A DNA stretch of 61,258 bases, counting the filler, from Dugesia japonica (lineage: Eukaryota), in NCBI GenBank assembly GCA_001938525.1. It is 6 parts of 6 records of this genome, joined end to end, with 100 filler letters (N's around TTAATTAATTAA, not from the genome) between each part and the next. Parts side by side here need not be neighbours in the genome. Positions count along the whole stretch, not along the records: positions 52,574 to 61,258 come from MQRL01579711.1; 5 more parts are not named here. The stretch is one strand, 5' to 3'. The position numbers and the translations under genes are program-made. The notes below the pieces were generated by a model. That model was given only the letters and a program-made list of their open reading frames with translations. It searched no databases and was not told where the DNA came from. Shown here piece after piece: positions 6,331-61,258 of this stretch. The stretch's first letter is position 1; each line of letters starts with the position of its first letter.

Positions 6331-9029
6331 TTGAAGATTCATGTAATATATCAAAAAGTAAATAAAAGGAGGATTCATGAAAAATGGAGTAATGAGTAAA
6401 ACATATGCATTATAAAGTCAGAATTTTGGTCAAAAAAGTCAAATTTTTCTTTTTAACATGATAAATAAAAGATTGCACTAATAATGACAATAAGGGATTA
6501 AAAAAAGGAATCAATTTCACCATTGGAATATGTTTTTAATGAAATTTCAGCCTTTTTCAACTTGTGTCAAAAGAAGATTTTCTATTTTGAATAAACCTTT
6601 AGCAAAAGACCGAAACTTTGCCCCTGAAATTTGGTAATAAAATTATGTTGTTATAATGTTCAATAAAATGTAAACTCTTGATATATTTTTTATATACAAA
6701 CCTAAATTTTCATAAATTTTAAGACTACTAAGCAATGATAATTGTTTAAAAAAAGAAAAATAAAGTCTTGTTTTTATAAAATTGTTTTTATATAATTTTG
6801 TATATTGGATGAAAAATCTATAAACCAAAGTTCAAGTGATCCAGTGCTGACATATCTTTATTTCGAGCCAAACATTTTTCAAAAAAAGTAAAGAACAACC
6901 GTTTTTAATTCTGTGTTAAACGGTACTAAATTTGAAACCAAAACACCGATTTTCGACCTTCCAGAGCAAAAATTCAACCAATAAATATAAAAAAATCGAA
7001 AACTGTTTTTACCTAATTTTAACGACCAGTCAAAATGCTTAATTTATAAAATAATCAAAACTCCTGGATCACTATGTCGACGGGGGAGATGATCCAGTGC
7101 TGACGTATCTAACTATTAAAGTATATGCAGTTTTTAATACTGAGTCTAATAATATCAAATTTTTAAAGAATTATTATTATTATTTATGAGCATAATTGGA
7201 GCCTTTAAAAGCAAATTTGGATTCAACTTTAATGCTAACATGCCTCGATTTTGTATGCATTTTTTCAATATTTTCATTTCCACTATGTGCAGTCCGTTTC
7301 AAAAGTCTGTTTGCACCAATGTAAATTACAAAAATTACAGACAAGTCGTTTGAAAGGGCAATGGAAAAGGAAGAAACATTATATTTACAAATATTAGTAA
7401 GTTTATTAATATTTTGTTGGGTATTCTTTCATCTTGATAATAGAGGGCACTCTTCGTAGCATGGAATCAACGAGTCTGCAACATAAGGAAGTGGGTATAT
7501 TATACCATATCTTTTGTAACTCGCACGCATTTCATCGGCATGTATATTTATAAACCAATAATTGCTATCTTAAAAAAAATTAATTTTTTCAAATAATTTT
7601 TTAAAATTTTTTTAACACAACAGACTATGCTATTTCCAATCACAACCCCGATGCTACCACATTCCCCTGTGGGAGACTCCTTCCTCTGAAGAAATTTATT
7701 GAAATCAAGGAGTTGTATTGAGTTCCCATCAAAGTGAACTTACAATACTGTATTCCACGCTTAAGTTCCCTCACCGCATTTGTGAAGTTGGTCTTTGGAC
7801 ATCTAGTTCTAACTGCTGAACAAGTTGAAAATGATCATCAGTTGAAAAATCTTGAAAAATATTTAGAAAAACTATTTTGTACCAGAACTTAAAATATTAC
7901 AAACAATTGAAAAAGGTAATTAAAAAAATACGTTTAAAATAAAACAAATGTTGATTCAATGAGATTTATTAACACATTAAAAAACAACACATAAAATTGC
8001 AATAATATGTTCACGACATTTAACAATAAACAGTAAAATAAAGGCTTACACAACGAAGAAATATAGTTTTGGTTTAAAACTTTGGCATTGCACATCGGAT
8101 ATAAACTAAGAATTAATAAGTTTACATAAATAAAAAAATATTATCGCTATTTTTCTTCCTTTCCACATGACATTGTCTTTGCTTCCTCAAAGCAATGAAT
8201 AGAGCTTGCATTTTGATATTTGTTTTAGTTATACTGGTTATCTTTGGACTCTAATATTGTATGTCCATGCTCAATTTATTAGCAGTTTTTACTTTTTCTT
8301 TTTTATAGATCTCAATAGCTGCTGTTGGCGAAACAAATTGAAATAACCTTACCAAGTTTTTCATCAAAAATATCATATTTTCAATCACCTTTGAATTTAA
8401 TTTGATTTTTTTCATACTTTCTTCTTTTCTTAATACCCAATTAATTAAAAAATTTTGTACTAATATTAATAATATTATTACCACCAAACTATCCAGAAAT
8501 TGAATGTATATTAATGCATGGAGACCCTTTGTAGTTTTTCTCCAACTTATACCGATATAATAGAATTTCATTGTTGGATATTTATGTCATCGGATTCATA
8601 AACTGCTCCAGATTGTATTCTCTCTTCAAAGCTTCTGTTTTATTAACTTTACACCTAGTTAAATTATTCATATAGTTCAGTATATATGTTTGATTAATGA
8701 TTGAAAATTGTTTGTATCCATCAATTTCTGGATAATCTTCATTGTTTTTGTTACATATCCATATCTACTTGATCATTTCATATTGCTTGTGAGATGAACT
8801 GCAAATATCTACTGTTTTGAAAATAATGAAATATTTAAAAGAATTTCGATTTATATTCTTGTTTTGTGTGAATGTATACTATTTTTGGTTGTAGAACGGG
8901 TAGAAAAAATTAAAGAAGAAAAAGAAAACTTGTTGTAATAATAAATGTAATTGTAATTAATTTTGTAATTATTGTAATTAAATTATTAAATTAAACAAAT
9001 TATTGTAATTAATTTTTATTAATGATTAC

Positions 9030-10021
9030 AATAGGTATGCAATAGACATACGATAAGGATGCAACACAGCCTGTGAATTTTAAACTTCCCAAAACATACC
9101 AAGACTGTCCCATCTCTTAGAAAAATTTAAGACTGCCAATCTTCTGCAAAAAATATAAAACTGCCTCATCTAATATATAAATATCAAGACTGCTCAAATG
9201 TACATATATTTTTCATAAAAAATCAATTTAAATAAAATCATCATTTTTATTAAAAAACATTAATTTTCAAAAAATCATTACACCGCCCTCACCCCACAGA
9301 AAAGATTAATTTAAATCTTATAATCACCATCAAATAATTTCCTTTCTACCCATATACTTTTCCCCCAAAGAAAAATTATTTTAACAACTTTATACTACTT
9401 ACAAAAATAAACCAAACAAGTTCTCGATGAATAAATCTTCAATTCCCTTCCATTCCACAACCATCAAACTCAACACCACATTACATCTTCAACAAGCCAT
9501 CACTAACCAAAATCCAACAACTACCAATAAACTTATACCAATATAAAAAATAAGCGAGCGATAACTCATCAGCTGTGCTTATGCGCTACCACCACTTGTA
9601 AAGAGAACCATCCATTCTACTTAATAAGTTTTTAGACCATATATAGACAGTATTTTGGTTCCAATGCACTCATATCATAAAACCCCTCAAAAAGTTAAAA
9701 TCAATACCCCCACACCTTTCTCGAGTTCACTTTTACTCTTACACACACTCACACACACCCTCTTTATTAAACCAAATTTAAATTACCCACCACAATATTC
9801 CAAACTCACACAAATTTTGAAAATTAAAATCCCCCCAACTTCTAGAATCAAAAATTCATGATCCCGATCAAAGAAAATTGATCCAATAAAAAATCTGATC
9901 ATCCCTACATTTTTTTAAATCTACACGATAACTCATACCAAATTTAAAGCAGTGTTATGATTTTTCTCTAGGAGGGAGCTTGATATTTCATACTGTGCTT
10001 ATGCATGAAATACGTACTACT
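9030..10021. mobile_element. Right terminal region (TIR) of a Polinton/Maverick-like element
   Basis: Diverged inverted homologue of 58415-59760 (shared TAAATATCAAGACTGCTCAAA, CGATAACTCAT, AACCATCCAT, CTCGAG..CTTACACACA, GATCAAA..TTGATCC). Ends ...TACTACT, i.e. AGTAGTA on the minus strand. Confidence 0.65.
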
Positions 10022-51500: not shown

Positions 51501-53519
51501 CATTTCGGTAATTTCATTTAATTGATAAATTTTAAATGTAAATAACGGAATATTTTAGAAATTTTTATGATTTAAATGTAAAATTTTATAATTTCAATGT
51601 AAATAAAGGAAATTTATATTATGCATACGTTAATATCACTAGTAAAAACAGTGATATTAAAATCAGTATTTTTACTCTTCGTCTAAATTTGAAAAATAAT
51701 CTAAATCCTGTGTGGTTAAAGATTATCAGATCAAAATAATAACTTGAACATAGTAAAAAAAATTTGTATTGCAATAAATATTCATAAAGTAATATTTTAA
51801 TTGATTACAAAGTGCCACTTTAGCTTACCTATAATCATTATCTTATTTATATTAAACATATTAGGCTATACAGTCCGATATATACAACACTATACATTTT
51901 CGAATTATTTGAACACTTAAAATATAATAACTAACTCAACTGTTGATTTGTCAAAATACATTACATACACACGTTTTTGTATGTATGTACTTGTATCTGC
52001 ATGTATTATTAAAGAAATATTACAATAATTATAAAAATATAGACACGAAATGACAAAATTAAATTTCAAGTTTAAAAATGCATTTTTTTCAAATGAAATA
52101 AAAAAAAGCAGAATTAAGTAATAATCGAATTAAAAATTTAAGAAACAAAGTAGAGATTAAATAGGAATTTCAAAATAATTAAAATCTTTGCAACGATCAA
52201 AAAAGAAAATTAAATATGAACTCGGCAATGTCAACAAAATAATCCAAAGATACACTATTTCTACTTTTAAAATAAACCTTAATTAATAAACGAAATTAAT
52301 CGAAAAAAAATATAAAACTACGTTAATATTCAAATCCACAGAAAACCAACACAGCTCCTGATAAAAAAACAATAACTTATTTAATTTAGTTTTATCGTTA
52401 TGTTGAGATTTAGATATAGGTATATAACATGCAAACATTCAAATATAACAGAAACATGCAGACATTCAACATANNNNNNNNNNNNNNNNNNNNNNNNNNN
52501 NNNNNNNNNNNNNNNNNTTAATTAATTAANNNNNNNNNNNNNNNNNNNNNNNNNNNNNNNNNNNNNNNNNNNNGAGCACTTAATTAAGATGCACAACGAA
52601 AATAAAATAAATAGTTTATTTTATTTAAATAAAATAAATCATAAGAAATAAAAAGATTTATTTTAAATAGAAAATTAAATTTTCCACAAAAACTAAGAAA
52701 ATTAGGACTTCTAGTGCTGTCAAAATTATCAATCTAGAAAATTCTGGTCGAGAAAATTTCGGTGAATTCAAAAATCAAACTTAGAAAATCATGGCATGGA
52801 AGGGAGAAAAGTTATAAGGGTTTGAAGGTTGACCAATAGTTTCTAAGTCCAAAAATAACCGCCAATGAAAAGAAAGCATGTAACCATCTGGCCAATAAAA
52901 GTGTCGAGAATTTATATCNNNNNNNNNNNNNNNNNNNNNNNNNNNNNNNNNNNNNNNNNNNNNNNNNNAGAAAAAACCGGTATAAATACCGATGAAAATT
53001 TCACAAAAGATAACACTTTTAACCAGACAAATATCGAGTTTATCGGAAAAAATTCTATTATCAAAGGTTAATAGATTATTTTTCGTAAATTCATGGTGCA
53101 ACGATTTCCGATTACTAGAACTAATTATTTCTAAGAACCTCTGGAGTCACTTTTGAACGAATAGATGTTATGCTCTTGTGCTTGCTCCAAATCGGTGTCC
53201 AGGTCACGTTAGTGTTGTTATTTTTCCTAATTATTAATTTATGTATAACAAGTTAAGATTTGGATAATAGAATATATTTTTCACTTGTTAAATTTTTGTT
53301 TTCTTGATAACTTTAAAACTTAAGGTATTGATTTTAATATTAAAGTAGTAATTAAAGGAACTCAGCTAAATATGCGTAAAAAATTTTTTTTTATATTTAG
53401 GATTCAACTGGCTGATAATAAAAATTCGTTAATAAAATCCGTTATAAACTAAAGTCGAATAAAATAATGATTAATAAGTAGGATTTAAATCAAGCGATTG
53501 GTCATGGCAGTTTGGTTTT

Positions 53520-54790
53520 TTGGTCTTGAAGGAAATCAGATAGTTTCCTTCATTGACGCTATCAATCATTATTATGCAGACTCCTAGCTCGTTACGCTTG
53601 AATCTGACTTTCAGTTAAAGCATTTTGTAGAGATAAAAAATCGCGTCATGAACCTTAGACCACCAGTATTTGAGTTTTGAATTTGTGGTATCAGTGGAAA
53701 GCTAGTCCAGAGCTTCATCAATTGAGAAAAACTTGAAGTACTTTAGGTGTTTTGTGGCTGCATGAATCAAATCGTGGCTAGCTACATCCCGTAAAATCTT
53801 ATCTGAACATACAAGCATTTTAAATGGCTGGACCAGAGATTGTACCGAGTATTCTCTCCTTGCAGATTTTAAGCCGACCCCCTTATTTTCGGGAAACTTA
53901 AAGATAGCCAGAGAGTGCCCAAAAGGGAACAGAGAGGATTTCCTAATATTTGTGCAGATATGCTTATCGATACACCGGAACCATTAAGTTACAACATTTT
54001 CGAAGTGACCGCTGCAATCGAATTTACTCAACGGAATGTTGAAATTCTTGAACGCGAACTTTGTAAGGTCCCTGATAGATTTTTCAAACTTTGCCGTGGG
54101 AGTTTAGAAATTATTGCAACTAAAATCAACCTCTAGGTACTTATAGGAATCTCGATGAAGAAGATTAGGGACTGGTTCTCCTATGATTGTAATTTGAACA
54201 AGTTCACTGTTGACAAGGCAAGTTAAATACACGAACTTTACTCGTTCGAAAATCCAGAGAGAACCAGTCAGCGAATTTCACAGCTACATCAAGCATGTCT
54301 AGTAGGCTTTCTTTCGATTAGCCTACAAGTGCGATGTCGTCCGCATATGCTAAGCTAAAAATAGGATGGCCTTCACAAGAGACACCAGGCCCCGGAGTTT
54401 TGGTTAACTCGCTTTTGATAGGGTTGACTTTAATGTTGAAAAACAGCATCGATAAGGGACAGCTTGTCGGACGCCTATTTTGTTTGCAATAGGACTAATG
54501 GAAATTCCATTGCAAGTATAGTAACTGGAGCATTCGGAGTACAGTGCTCTAATTAGTTTGATGGATTTTTCATTGACACCCAGTGAGCAGGCCAAGAATG
54601 TGTTCTATGGTAATGCTTCCGAAAGATTCCGCAATGTCAAGGAAGTCGATATGCACGTTAAATTTAGTTTATTGGCTCTGGTTGTCCAGTAGACATCGCA
54701 GCAGAAAATTGTATTCTGATCAACCCTCCGACTCACCAGCACTTTTCTGGATGTTGTATAGCAGTTTGATTTCATCAACAAACTTGACAA
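53520..54790 (-). mobile_element. Second NeSL/Utopia-like RT fragment, same family as 14950-17860
   Basis: FLDIAESFGSI, LIRALYSECSSYYTCNG..IANKIGVRQ and LAYADDIALVG are collinear with the first copy. Confidence 0.87.
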
Positions 54791-55019
54791 CTGAGATACT
54801 GAAACAACAAACTACACCGTTTCAACTCCTGCATGACATAATAATTTGTGTATTTCTTCTGTTGTTTCATGTAGGTTGTCATCCGGAATTTTCATTTTCT
54901 TGATCAAATCTGTTTCCTCAGAAATGTTTAAATGATCTTCTTTTCATTTTCAATTATGTTCAGTTCTCGTTTTAATCTTCTCTTTCATGGCATCTTCATG
55001 TGACATTCGACACTGCACA

Positions 55020-57200
55020 TGTCAGGATAAGTAAATGAATATTTTAAGTTTCATTTGAATAAATAAAGAAGTGGTTTGATAATTCAGAGGGCTTGGCAGA
55101 AGATCAAAAAATCAAAGAGAAGCAGATAATTATTAAAAGCCGGAATTTATTAACTTTTGGTGAAATAAATATTTTATATGATGACGTACTCTTTTCTAAA
55201 TGAGCACGTATGCTTTGTTTCTAATATTGTGGCAGTGGTTAATACAGATAGTATTGCGGACTGTCCTATTTGTGATATCTACAGAAGACACGATGACGTG
55301 GAAAATTTTATATTCAAGTGTGAAATGTATTTTGGCGTCAAAGGAATTAACAATAAAAAGATCAGGAGCGGTTGGTAACGTGTCTGATAGAAGAGGAACT
55401 AGTTGGTAAGTATGTTGAAACATTTAAAAAAAACAGAGGATTCCAGGATCGACTTCGCGTAGCATTTGAAAATGAAAGAAGCTTGATACGGGATTTCAAA
55501 GAATTATTAGATTTCAAACGAAATCATGAAGATGTGGAAACTTATATTGCCAAAGTAGAAGAACTGTTAAATAACTTATTTTCAAATAAAAATTTTACAC
55601 AGGAAAACACTGTGCAGGCGATAGAATGTGCAGTAATGGAGAATCCAAGAAGTATTTTTGTAATGTAGAAGCTAATTTCTGGAAACAAGTTAAAACAGAT
55701 GAACGATGGAGGAAAGCGGGCAGTACGATAAATTGGAAAGGAGATGATCGGTTGAGGGACGTTTGTAGACAGAGAGGTGGAGTATTTATCGCAGACAAAT
55801 GGGATGTGGGTCGAACAGATATTGTTAAACACAAGATTATTACAAAAGGAGATCCAATTAAAACGAAACCCTATAGACAACCGATAAATTTGGAGAGCAA
55901 AATTAACGAAACAATTAAAAACCTGTTTGAAAAGGAAATAATAAGGCGATTCAATTTTCAATTTAATTCACCATTAATATGCGTATGGAACAAAGATAAA
56001 CAGGACATGCGTTTATGTTTAGATTTCAGGAAGCTGAACGCTATTACAGAGAGACAAGCGTTCTTAATGCTTAATATCGAAGAGATGCTACATATGTTGA
56101 ATGGGATGACTTACTTCAGCACGATAGACCTTGGTAATGCTTATTACCAAATAGAATTAGACAGCGAATCGCAAGAAAAGACAGAATTCCCGACTAATAA
56201 GGGCCAGTACTGTTTCAACTGAATGCCGTTTGGCATAGCAGCAGCACCAGGTACGTATCAGGAGCTGATGGTAAAGGTGACGAAAGACATCAAGGGATCT
56301 ATTGTATATTTAAATGATATATTAATTTTTCCTAAGACATGAGAGGAACATTATGGAATTGTAAAAAGAGTGTTGGACAGCATTAGTGAAGCAGATCTCT
56401 GTATTAACCCAGAAGAAGGCATTTTCCTTCAGAAAGAAATTAAATTCCTTGGACACATCAGTTTAAAAGCAATTCGTACAAATTCGGTGTTTTCGCTGAG
56501 GGATGAAGACGGAAACGAAAGAGTGATAGCGTGTGGGTGTCACGTGATGTCTACCCACGAACAAGGATACTGCATAACTCGTAAGGAACTCCTGGCAGTA
56601 TATTACTTTTGTTTAAACTTTAAACATTATTTATATGGTTACAAAGCGATCACGTTTATGTTGCATATAAAAAAGCAATCACAACGCAGTTCCAAACCTG
56701 GATTAATTTCCTTAGTTGTTTGGACATGAAATTGGAATTCAGGATAGGTGAGAATCACGGCAATGCAGATGCATTAAGTTAATATAACTGTGATAAATGC
56801 ACAGTGCCAATTGATACATGAGGAGGCAAAATGGGAAAATTGAAGACCAGGAGACTGGGAGACACTGAGGGAATAAACGAGTTGGATATTGACATGAATC
56901 GAAATAGAATGTCGAAGAAAATTTGGCTATCAGAGGAGACAATTGAGCAGAAGATTTTGGAGATTCATAAATCATTATGTCATGCATTTATAGAAAAATC
57001 GGAGGAATATGTCTGCTCATGATACGAATGGAAACAGTTAAGATCAAGAATAAGAGAGATTATAAGAAGCTGTATTTTCTGCCAAAAAGCCAAANNNNNN
57101 NNNNNNNNNNNNNNNNNNNNNNNNNNNNNNNNNNACAGTTACGCTCCGTTCGAAGTGGCCCATTTAAGGAGACGAAAAATAGGAAAAAATGCATCCTTTA
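55020..57200 (+). mobile_element. Ty3/Gypsy relic related to the 19-23.8 kb element, with protease and part of RT/RH deleted
   Basis: gag start VSNIVAVVNTDSI is homologous to the 19505 ORF; RT LCLDFRKLNAIT..FSTIDLGNAYYQI; RH ITRKELLAVYYF. Confidence 0.88.
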
Positions 57201-57650
57201 CATGGGTTTATGCAATAATTTCCCCCTAGAAATAATATCCCCTTAGAAATAATTTCCCCTGGAAATAATTTTAATTGTTTTATACATGGTTTTCATGAAA
57301 TTAATGGGAATTATGCGGATTTTGTGATTATTAATGGATATATGTGATTTTTGACAATTTTTAGTTGTTTAATAGGGATTTATATAATTTATTGGTATTT
57401 TTCGGTAATGTTAAGAAAATTGTGAGGTCTTTCGTGAATTTTAAGAGTATTGTGGATCTTCATGAAATTTAAGGATTCATAGAGATTTCATGAAAATTTA
57501 AGGGGTTTATGGGGTTTCATAAAATGTAAAGATTCATGGATATTTCATGAATTTTATGAATTTCAGGGTATTTATTTTGGTTTATAAGAGATTTATAAGG
57601 GTTTTATAATGGTATTTTATATTATATTATAATAAAGTAATCCAGCAGAG

Positions 57651-58414
57651 TTAGTATTTAGGAGACAGTTGTACGGTGTGATCCATAAGCAAAAACTCGT
57701 TCTCTTCCTTCTTATCTCCATGTGACAGTACTGCTCCAATTATATTAAAACTGGCATCCATATCTAATATAAATTCTCTGTTTATGTCCGGAAAACACAA
57801 TATTGGTGCAGTCATAAGAGATTTTTTCGGACCCTCAAAAGTATCTTTTATTTCATCTGTCCATTCTAATTTCTTGTTGCTTGGTCCGCTACACAACTGC
57901 TCTAATATGTTTGATTTTCTTCCGTAGTTTTTTATAAACTTCCTGTAATAATTACAAATTACTAAAAATCTTCACAGCTGCTTCACACAGTTAGCTTTGC
58001 CAAATGTTCTTATTGCTTCTATTTTAGACGAATCAGTTCTAACACCATCCCTGCTAATTATGTGTCCAAGAAACTTGATTTCGTTTTGAAGAAACTGAAA
58101 ATTTTCCGGATTATTTATTAAACCAGCCTTCATTATTTCCGTCAGTACTTTTTCAAATACCTCTTAGTGTTGATCTTTATTGTTCATAAATATCAAGATG
58201 TCATCAAGATAAAACATGGCTTCATTGATTCCGCCTACCATTTTGTCATCATCTTCTGAAATATCCCTGGTGCCACTGCGATGCCAAATGGCATACTATT
58301 AAAACAATATTGTTCGTGCTCCGTTGAAAACACCGCTTTTTCTTGAGATTCTTCTTCAAGCTCTACATGATAGTATGTATTTCCCAAATCTATTGAACTA
58401 AAATATTTTACTCC
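57651..58414 (-). mobile_element. Ty3/Gypsy RT-RNase H fragment
   Basis: Minus strand GVKYFSSIDLGN, FYLDDILIF, KFLGHII, APILCFPDINREFILDMDAS. Confidence 0.88.
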
Positions 58415-61158
58415 TAGGGGGATTAGTAGCGCATAAGCACAAGCTAAAACACAAACTTTTTAAGCAAATATCGTGCCCCCCTACCCCATTCCCTTGCGAG
58501 TGCTCAGAAACACATTACGATTGTGCTATGGTTTTTGTGCTATGATATTTTAGTTAGTTTTTTTCAAAGATTCTTTAGGATCAAAAATCTTTTGATCGCA
58601 TCCAATTTTTTTTTGATCCTGGGGATGTGTGTGTGAATTTAAAATTTTTTAAATTTATGTGTTTGGGTTGCTAAGAGGATTTTTAAAAATTAGGTCAAGT
58701 TGAGCTTGTTTGTGTGTAAGAATGAATTTAGGCTCGAGGAGGAGCTGGAGATCTTGGAAATAATTTTTTTGTAGTTTTAAAGATTTGGTTGTGGTTGGAC
58801 AAAACATCGGTCTATTTATTGTTTAAAGGACATGTGAGGTTGGATGGATGGTTTGTCCTAGAAGTGTGGTGGCACACTGCCTAAGGCGTATGAGTTATCG
58901 TGAGGTGTTTTTTGGGAGGGTGTAGGTTTGTATAAGATTATTGGATTTGGATGGTTGGTAGGTTGTTGTAAAGGTAATGTGATGGAGAATATTTTGTATG
59001 TCGAATGTACTTTGATTTTTTATTTTAAGGCCTTTAATTTGATTGGTTGATATTTGTAAGTAGTATAAGTGTGTTAAAAAAAATTTCAAGAGAAGGAGAG
59101 TGGTATAGGGGGTTATGACGTCATAATATTTTGAAATCTTTATTTGGAGTAAAAATGCTGTATTTTGCTTAAAATGATGAATTATTAGAAAGTAATGGTA
59201 TTTTTGAGTATTTTTGAGTGGGAAGGGTTGTTTTTAATATTTGTCGATGTATGAAGAGGGGAGTCTTGATATTTTTGAAAGCTTTTTTGGTGGGAAATTA
59301 AAAAATTTATTTTTGCATGGGAAATTAAATTTTTTCTTTGAGCAGTCTTGATATTTATGCATGGTATGGACAGTCTTGATATTATTGCATGGTATGGGCA
59401 GTCTTGATATTTTGTAAGATATTTTTAAAAGATATTGAACAGTCACGTTATTTAGCATGGAATGACACAGACTTGATATTTTGCAAGGGATGGGGCAGTC
59501 AAAATTCATAGGAATGTGATTTTCAGTTAATGCGTGCTGCATCTGAGTTTCATACATATTGCATTTATATTAAAAATACAAAAACGCGGCTATGTTGAGT
59601 TTTAAAAAATTGTTTTAGTGGGAAATTTAAAAAATCAATAAAAATTACCAGGCACGTGATTTTCATTGTATATGTGTTGCATATGAGTTGCATTTGAGTT
59701 GCATCCCTATTGCATTTATTAAAATTCCCAGGCACGTGTTGCTGTATTGCATTCATATTGCATTCATATTGCATTCATTATTAAAACATTGAGGTAGTCT
59801 TCAAATTTTTTGATATTTTTGCAAAATATGGGGTAGTCTAAAATTAACATGATAAAATATTCAAAGAGGAGAGTCTTAGTGATATTTACACGATAAAAAC
59901 CTTTCTTTATAAGATGATAAAAACATAGAACTTTTTTCTTAAAAACATATTAGTTAAGTAATTTTCTTTAAAAACATATTAACGATGCAATTTTAAACAA
60001 AAAATCATATTAGCGTTGCAATTTTAATTAATTAGTCTCATAATGTTGTTGCAATTTTTAATAAAAGTATCATTAGTGTTGCAATTTTTAATAAAAACAT
60101 ATATGTGGTGAGGATATTCTATACAATTATGATAAAATCATAGAACTTTTTCATAAAAACATATTAGCTCGGAATTTGTATATACGAAATATTAAAAACA
60201 GAATTTTTCAATATATTTAAATAGATAATAAGTCTATATTAAAAAGACTCATAAATAAATATTTTGATATCAATAGGGTTAATGAATGTATAAGTTAAAT
60301 GAGTGTATACGTTTTATGAGTATACTATTTGCATAGTTACCCTGTATTATAGGGTTTATGAGTGTATTATTTGTATAGTTACCTTGTTTTATTTACATAG
60401 CAACCATGTATTAAAAGGATTATGAGTGTATTATATACTTAGCAACCGTTTATTATTTACATAGCAACCGTGTAATATAGGGTTTATATTTATTTTATTT
60501 ACATAATTACCCTGTATTATCTTGAGTATATATTTCTCGATAATCAATGTTTTTCGTCAAGGAAACGGAAACAGCATCTAGATTTTTAAATGTTGAACTC
60601 GAGCTTTTATAACTACCGTTATATTGTTCACCACTTTGAAACGTAACCAGAATAAAGCTAGGTAATCGACGATCACCAAAGATTTGTTCCTTAACTATCT
60701 TTACTTATTGAAAATGCAACGACTTCCTTGGTTCTTATTGGATAAACAGCATTTTGCTTTTTTAGGCTCAATTGGCGAGCAACTAGTTCTAAGGGTTAAA
60801 TGCGTACACGTCTAACCCTTAATTTTGCATCTAGTAATACATATTTAGGTTGATTGGCTGCAGATTCCAAACAAATATCAGCATCTTCTCGTTTCAATCG
60901 AATATGAACATTGACATCCGGAATAAGGTATTTCGGTTGATCCATGAAATCGAGTTGCAAAAAATTACATAGAGTTAATTGTTTTGATTTTGCAATAGAA
61001 TTTTTTCTATCTGCTTCTGATCCATATCCCATTGCTGTAAGACATATATTCTTACTATCACCATTATAATTAATTTTAGTTTCCATCATAGCTTTATGAA
61101 TATGAGATCCGTTTCTACTTTCAATTTTGAAATTATTAAACGAAAGTATTACATCCTT
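58415..61158. mobile_element. Deleted Polinton/Maverick-like element: left terminus, repeat-rich terminal region and major capsid gene fragment
   Basis: Terminus TAGGGGGATTAGTAGCGCATAAGCACAA matches 61159; MCP-like coding sequence at 60535-61158 (-). Confidence 0.7.
60535..61158 (-). pseudogene. Polinton/Maverick major capsid protein (double jelly-roll, F54H12.2-like) fragment
   Basis: LQLDFMDQPKYLIPDVNVHIRLKR...LLDAKLRVRRVRI*P...NAVYPIRTKEVVAFSI, then frameshifted LPSFILVTFQ..YNGSY..TFKNLD. This fits the family pattern LxxDxFxQxKxLxxxVxxRxRL..A.L.VR+V+...A.YP..+..+..F.I..LP..I.+.F..FNG as recalled. Confidence 0.75.
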
Positions 61159-61258
61159 AGTAGGGGGATAGTGGCGCACGGTCACAACATGCATGGCACT
61201 GAGCGGACCCCCTCCCCGGGGGGGCTCGAAAACACATTAAGATTGTGACCGTTTTTTT
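61159..61258. mobile_element. Left terminus of a younger Polinton/Maverick-like element (runs out of window)
   Basis: Starts AGTAG (Polinton-type terminus). AGTAGGGGGATAGTGGCGCACGGTCACAA...AAACACATTAAGATTGTG parallels 58415-58530. Interrupts the MCP reading frame. Confidence 0.7.

Follow-up and report, generated by a model that had tools for sequence, protein, structure and literature searches.

Polintons (Mavericks) are replicated by a protein-primed polymerase and inserted by a retrovirus-like integrase, according to the accessible text of PMC6431247. In the accounts of animal Polintons accessible in part (PMC8097293, PMC4028283, PMC6431247), the elements are described with terminal inverted repeats, a 6-bp duplication and a double jelly-roll capsid protein (PY), together with an rve integrase, a P-loop ATPase, an adenain-type protease and pPolB, and most copies are degraded. 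We found the Polinton family of the window, by which we mean the whole analysed stretch of 61,258 nucleotides from Dugesia japonica (assembly GCA_001938525.1), to be alike in all of these traits. Compared with the vertebrate Mavericks covered by the accessible text of PMC8097293, which have a tip of (AGT)2 or (AG)3 and an arm of 46-1,447 bp, the window family had the tip AGTAG(G/A) and an arm of approximately 2.1 kb. Its core genes (ATPase, integrase, penton-like, capsid, protease and polymerase) lay on one strand with a divergent mini TATA-binding protein (mini-TBP) gene, a layout in which it differed from the animal Polintons in these accounts; a one-strand Maverick layout is reported there only for Xenopus tropicalis (PMC8097293). 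A further difference from animal Polintons was a large subfamily without the polymerase. Adintoviruses and MELD viruses are, in the accessible text of PMC8502044, likewise animal Polintons with virion genes and degraded germline copies, and a figure legend of that paper names TBP for MELD viruses of non-animal datasets; unlike adintoviruses, the window family is known here from its genomic copies.

For Dugesia itself, a Maverick expansion beside Gypsy elements has been described (bioRxiv 10.64898/2025.12.11.693146), and planarian Polintons are silenced by piRNAs (PMC8532177), both sources being accessible in part. Like the Mavericks of these accounts, the window family was present at a very high copy number alongside Gypsy elements, in an animal genome rich in AT, although element anatomy, nesting and subfamilies are absent from their accessible portions. 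By title or the start of the abstract, none of the publications found in our searches dealt with nested Polintons or with a polymerase-less subfamily that keeps its capsid gene, which is weak evidence of absence.

The part of the window at 52574-61258 (MQRL01579711.1) is contig C579711, whose last base is window position 61258; the assembly is very fragmented, with 854 Mb spread across 648,594 contigs. With a probability of roughly 0.88, this locus holds a young Polinton/Maverick, bordered by a 6-bp duplication, in the middle of a broken capsid gene of the double jelly-roll type; that gene belongs to an older member of the same family, and the 2.1-kb repeat of this older Polinton in turn interrupts a Gypsy reverse transcriptase (RT) gene, with both insertions likely made by the family integrase and the nesting likely due to chance. 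The features are listed in Table 1.

Table 1. Features of the nested insertions, in window coordinates
Feature	Position	Strand	Basis or remark
Pseudogene fragment with RT / RNase H of a Gypsy (Ty3-type) element	57651..58414	-	truncated by the terminus of the older Polinton, at 58414; profile matches and sister copies
Terminal inverted repeat arm of the older Polinton, ~2.1 kb, with internal tandem arrays	58415..60518	.	colinear with the L243 left arm; sister ends
Major capsid protein (MCP) pseudogene fragment, residues ~92-308 of 406	60519..61158	-	three-frame translation; homologue P0002; sister copies
6-bp target-site duplication ATCCTT	61153..61158	+	repeated directly after the partner end on C289881 (L012:197-202)
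Tip of the young Polinton terminal inverted repeat	61159..61258	+	contig stops at 61258; holds the false ATG at 61194 (minus strand)

A Pfam search of the minus-strand frames at 57651-58414 revealed RVT_1 (E 6e-10) followed by RT_RNaseH_2 (E 1e-11), which is the Ty3/Gypsy arrangement of RT and then RNase H. The first-pass annotation, made from the sequence alone, had the Gypsy RT on the minus strand stop exactly at 58414, and this position stood: when 58150-58440 was searched against the genome, all 39 non-self matches ended at or before query position 266, which corresponds to 58414/58415, and the RT continued past the equivalent position in 14 of 14 sister RT copies examined, so that the gene is cut precisely there. 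Additionally, the junction was bridged without differences by at least one contig in each of two of the four sequencing runs, from two studies, although one of these runs may be the source of the assembly itself. A second Gypsy RT/RNase H pseudogene, approximately 65% alike, faced the first one at 55590-56729 (plus strand); between the two lay a scaffold gap (57095-57134) and short tandem arrays (57214-57609).

The terminus that had been read at 58415 does start there, with the sequence as written. Its tip lacked the first AG of the usual AGTAG, which was present in 11 of 14 sister ends counted by hand. Of the description of the following DNA as approximately 2 kb of repeats, the length was correct, but the notion of separate repeat DNA was not, as the alignment with contig L243 revealed the whole to be a single terminal inverted repeat arm. 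In particular, 58502-60478 was colinear with the L243 left arm, the right arm of the same contig being its inverted counterpart, and the older arm matched both L243 arms in the inverted sense, a trait of terminal inverted repeats. The termini at 58415 and 61159 are related beyond chance (alignment score of 58, compared with a maximum of 39 in 2000 shuffles). An exact-pattern search for the far end of the older element with its 6-bp duplication gave 0 matches, which is a weak test, since an exact match is unlikely at approximately 12% decay. Because this far end and duplication were not found and the first AG was missing from the tip, a small deletion could instead have joined the older Polinton tip to the Gypsy gene. 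At approximately 9000-9890, in another part of the window, we also observed a piece of this Polinton terminal arm in diverged form (approximately 65%).

As had been noted from the sequence, the 2-kb repeat is followed by an MCP-like pseudogene on the minus strand. Three-frame translation of the fragment revealed one in-frame stop near 60797 and a frameshift near 60693, and comparison with sister copies indicated that its 3' part was deleted from approximately residue 308 into the terminal array. With a longer sister capsid frame as the query, 101 database homologues were found, mostly of 405-430 aa, and 90 of them were aligned with the window fragment after 11 short ones had been dropped. The closest, P0002, was intact with 406 aa, and over 120 aa (residues 92-211) it shared 74% identity with the window fragment. 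The predicted structure of P0002 (pLDDT 92, pTM 0.89) had its best PDB matches in the double jelly-roll capsid proteins of iridovirus, PBCV-1, Sputnik and mavirus (E down to 9e-16, TM 0.5-0.7), and adomavirus, virophage and MELD-virus proteins matched among viral structure models. The Pfam searches with the window capsid fragments, the longer sister frames and five intact homologues matched no capsid family. The structure prediction that had been proposed as a check, in which a failure to match Polinton capsids was to count against the reading, thus returned a double jelly-roll fold for the homologue, and this model, linked to the window by the 74% identity, supports the placement of the older capsid gene in the double jelly-roll family. 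The fold agrees with the role of PY as the Polinton capsid in the accessible text of PMC4028283. The best viral structure match of P0002 was BFVD R9XLG5 (E 3e-26, 25% identity), which is an uncharacterised protein of a Cotesia bracovirus; PMC4028283, a source accessible in part, cites a work whose title concerns a Maverick transferred into a bracovirus. Genome-wide, there were 11,907 first-look capsid candidates, and the gene was of full length without a stop in only one of the 102 that were scored.

Among the non-self matches to 60500-61258, 37 of 39 ended at query position 659-660 (61158-61159) and none extended beyond. This result, together with the relatedness of the two termini, bore out the claim that the capsid frame is cut at 61158 by a related terminus, and an ATG at 61194 that had been dismissed as the start of the gene does fall inside the young terminus. 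With 61159-61258 as the query, we obtained 790 first-look candidates, and all 40 that were scored matched. The sequence AGTAGGGGGATAG started 34 of the 35 young ends examined, whose flanks were unrelated and whose duplicated 6-mers were varied, with no common motif.

The first-pass annotation had further predicted an inverted right end followed by ATCCTT and the upstream half of the MCP gene, and all three were found on one contig, C289881. There, ATCCTT comes directly after the partner end (L012:1-196, inverted), and next come capsid residues 1-93 together with the preceding gene. It was the best non-self match of the young tip and the best of the 34 other ends; between 61159-61258 and this end, we found two substitutions and one gap in 100 bases (97% alike), and both begin with AGTAG. 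The duplication was exactly 6 bp long, and C579711 and C289881 were the sole pair with complementary flanks among the 35 ends. The upstream capsid half on C289881 did not have the usual start methionine. The gene upstream of the older capsid gene was itself cut again by an unrelated repeat at L012:664-975, and for this reason the left part of the older element could not be followed. L041 and L042 also matched the pattern of end plus duplication, which had three matches in total, and were rejected as partners, being ends of another subfamily with non-capsid flanks.

Given an assembly in 648,594 contigs in which scaffolds of this family are at times muddled (L160, and L060, whose flanks mismatch), we considered whether the junctions are chimeras between repeats. 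However, a chimera would not yield a complementary 6-bp duplication and an in-register split of the capsid gene on two separate contigs, and the Gypsy junction was bridged in runs of two studies; we therefore regard an assembly artefact as extremely unlikely. Loose ends at 61159 were present in three of the four sequencing runs, which would fit an empty allele or sister copies alike.

Regarding the size of the young element, its assembled sequence amounts to 100 bases on C579711 and 196 on C289881, after which both contigs end. We found it nearly an even question whether this element is a short non-autonomous derivative, reduced to its ends or heavily deleted, and not a full or intact Polinton. 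A second young copy (L017/L077) had both tips and a perfect duplication, AATATA, with the tips approximately 435 bp apart in the scaffold across a 50-N gap; deletions or breaks affect most of the family's assembled copies, and the single stop-free, full-length capsid gene among 102 scored matches is in line with a short form. Against this, gap sizes in scaffolds are unreliable, the two ends of the window element lie on separate contigs as a long insert predicts, and near-identical interiors of young copies would probably collapse in this assembly. Moreover, the young-type tips of L110 and L151 run into the same sub-terminal sequence as the older Polinton arms.

Returning to the nested-insertion reading, the order of events would be the Gypsy element first, then the older Polinton into the Gypsy gene, then decay and an internal deletion, and finally the young Polinton. 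In favour of this reading, the young ends were 97% alike, whereas the older capsid copy agreed with its closest sisters at 86-90%. Both insertions would likely be the work of the family's retrovirus-like integrase, with a target choice that appears to be near random. A different possibility is that the family prefers to integrate into older Polintons, so that the nesting is directed. Such a preference could be read from further young ends in a capsid gene (L156, C452416) and an integrase gene (L160, C595516) and from AGTAG ends inside older copies in L072, L115, L116, L119 and L120. However, only 2 of 33 other young ends abutted family DNA, compared with 7 of 124 random tiles (Fisher p=1.0), and 5 of 33 had any family match within 300 bp, compared with 10 of 124 tiles (p=0.31). 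The tiles were 300 bases each from 40 arbitrarily picked contigs. This test was small and missed the young end in the integrase gene of L160, so 3 of the 33 ends may in fact be nested. The 35 duplicated 6-mers also had no motif in common, which speaks against directed insertion, and we consider self-targeting very unlikely. Family DNA made up 2,290 of the 37,200 bases in the random tiles (approximately 6%), from which frequent nesting is to be expected, and the nesting is likely a matter of chance in a Polinton-rich genome.

To describe the family beyond the window, we compared sister contigs. The gene order assembled within single contigs was arm, mini-TBP (opposite strand), ATPase, small ORF, integrase, penton-like gene, small ORF, capsid, protease, intergenic stretch, polymerase and arm. 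The Polinton genes sought in other genomic copies were present there, namely the integrase, P-loop ATPase, adenain-type protease and pPolB. The retrovirus-like integrase was identified on the capsid-bearing contig L073 (rve, E 1.6e-11), and a 144-aa piece of the P-loop ATPase matched Pox_A32 at E 3e-4, below the cut-off. The protease domain (PF00770) was found in three of four homologues of a degraded copy at L063:6496-6906, although direct Pfam and PDB searches with this copy itself gave no match. All nine capsid-bearing contigs chosen matched the PF03175-positive polymerase of L081 (E 4e-11 to 5e-71). A conserved ORF between the integrase and the capsid gene matched no Pfam family; it is a putative single jelly-roll penton gene, 'penton' being a working name, as are 'PZ' and 'PW'. 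The mini-TBP was 150 aa long (L115:9185-9634, minus strand, contig C619617; PF00352, E 3e-14) and divergent from the ATPase gene. A genome search with it matched in 150 of 150 scored candidates, which corresponds to at least 150 copies; the ATPase gene adjoined it in 5 of the 12 top loci, the other seven being short or ending near the gene. Its 115 database homologues were nearly all 100-200 aa long.

A second, distant Polinton group was also observed (L093-L108, 14 contigs), in which polymerase frames ran stop-free for 1,000-1,500 codons in several contigs. This group had a PF21738 capsid, for which the window's family gave no match, as well as an A32 ATPase and a PLA2-like domain carried by the integrase, and it is likely the more recently active one. 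Long stop-free PF03175 frames had been considered as evidence on the young element and were set aside: the 17 stretches came from 14 contigs without a match to the window capsid type and, since they belong to the second group, are uninformative on that point. A further subfamily, with a more distant capsid and protease pair, was seen at L119:474-1710, with an element of the window family inside or beside the pair. The first-pass annotation had spoken of two waves of one capsid-encoding family; repeated insertion was upheld, whereas the simplicity of two waves was not, given several subfamilies and a distant second group.

In the window copy, the polymerase was absent between the capsid gene and the arm. 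Across 49 non-redundant loci with a capsid 3' end, a sample biased by the retrieval route, 16 had a form with a 0.8-kb spacer, 12 had the full form, 12 were too short and 9 were other. A search with the spacer matched in all 40 scored candidates at 82-100%. By hand count, 20 of 46 spacer contigs reached the outer terminal-repeat arm without a polymerase in between, and the other 26 ended too soon. One of the 20, L235, had a polymerase fragment past a short piece of arm, and L200 had one on the opposite strand. In particular, L059, L064 and L243 were gap-free from left arm to right arm and had no polymerase match. One scaffold with both tips of a spacer-type copy (L060 and L109) had flanks that did not match and four gaps. 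Measured on the 225-aa query, the integrase ended at or before residue 110 in all six spacer contigs that had one, while it reached residue 225 in three of four full-type contigs. The spacer subfamily kept the ATPase, penton-like, capsid and mini-TBP genes, and the polymerase, integrase and protease were lost or cut; further deletions of the same capsid-module genes varied among its copies.

The window capsid copy clustered with six spacer copies (FastTree support 0.955). In a larger capsid tree, the full-type L005 fell next to the window copy, and the spacer copy L200 lay among full-type ones. The subfamily assignment of the window copy rests on this star-like tree because the copy has itself lost the spacer; judged from these sequences, the older element likely belongs to the non-autonomous subfamily without a polymerase. 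As an established model, non-autonomous DNA transposons are copied in trans through recognition of their ends. Ds and MITEs are such deletion derivatives, which kept their ends, lost their enzymes and are copied in trans. In the same manner, the spacer subfamily, comprising the capsid gene, a protease remnant, the 0.8-kb spacer, the terminal repeat and a cut integrase, was probably copied by full-length elements that recognise only its ends. In contrast to Ds and MITEs, its copies are several kb long and still contain the capsid-module genes.

Other rearrangements were also present in the family. An internal AT-rich array ahead of the polymerase (L118:1811-2045, similar in L113-L130) resembled the inner terminal repeat in direct orientation, and in L117 this array ran straight into a terminal arm with no polymerase. 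Recombination between such arrays could delete the polymerase, as L117 suggests in an alignment of AT-rich sequence that carries no shuffle control; it was rejected as the origin of the spacer subfamily, which it does not explain. In a single example, L126 (C635576), the left arm was joined directly to the pre-polymerase region and the polymerase, with the capsid module missing, and this contig is possibly a polymerase-only derivative.

The retained genes of the spacer subfamily are also what would be expected if its capsid genes had stayed functional and it had complemented full-length elements, much as a segment does in a two-part virus. The older element would then lie in a segment of capsid-module genes only (mini-TBP, ATPase, penton-like and capsid), multiplied to thousands of germline copies by complementation with full-length or polymerase-only partners. 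In 35 spacer copies, capsid variants shared by at least three copies comprised 52 nonsynonymous (N) and 44 synonymous (S) changes, compared with 437 and 124 among singletons (p=3e-6), which at first appeared to indicate selection. However, this silent excess lay in variants that also occurred among full-type copies (12 N : 26 S). Shared variants private to the subfamily (39 N : 18 S, and five shared stops) resembled singletons, so the signal of selection on the capsid after polymerase loss (p=3e-6) was gone in this control (p=0.14). The partial agreement between the capsid and spacer trees points to recombination with full-length elements, and the varied extra deletions of capsid-module genes also speak against a maintained segment. 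Pairwise capsid dN/dS was 0.62 within the spacer subfamily and 0.46 within full-type copies, values that carry no neutral calibration. Because the silent excess comes from variants shared with full-type copies, recombination with full-length elements is the better explanation; we consider complementation by working capsid genes improbable, and membership of the older element in such a segment equally so.

Taken together, the nesting orders the insertions in time and matters little beyond that; it is well proven here, but it is ordinary transposon nesting. It proves that the family integrated repeatedly, into its own dead copies and probably into Gypsy elements as well, with a clean 6-bp duplication at the young insertion. 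Had the polymerase-less subfamily provided capsids, it would illustrate the origin of segmented viruses derived from Polintons, although the control speaks against this. More useful are the side results, which describe an animal Polinton family of very high abundance, with terminal repeats of 2 kb, a one-strand layout, a mini-TBP of its own and, likely, a non-autonomous subfamily that keeps its capsid gene but has lost its enzymes.
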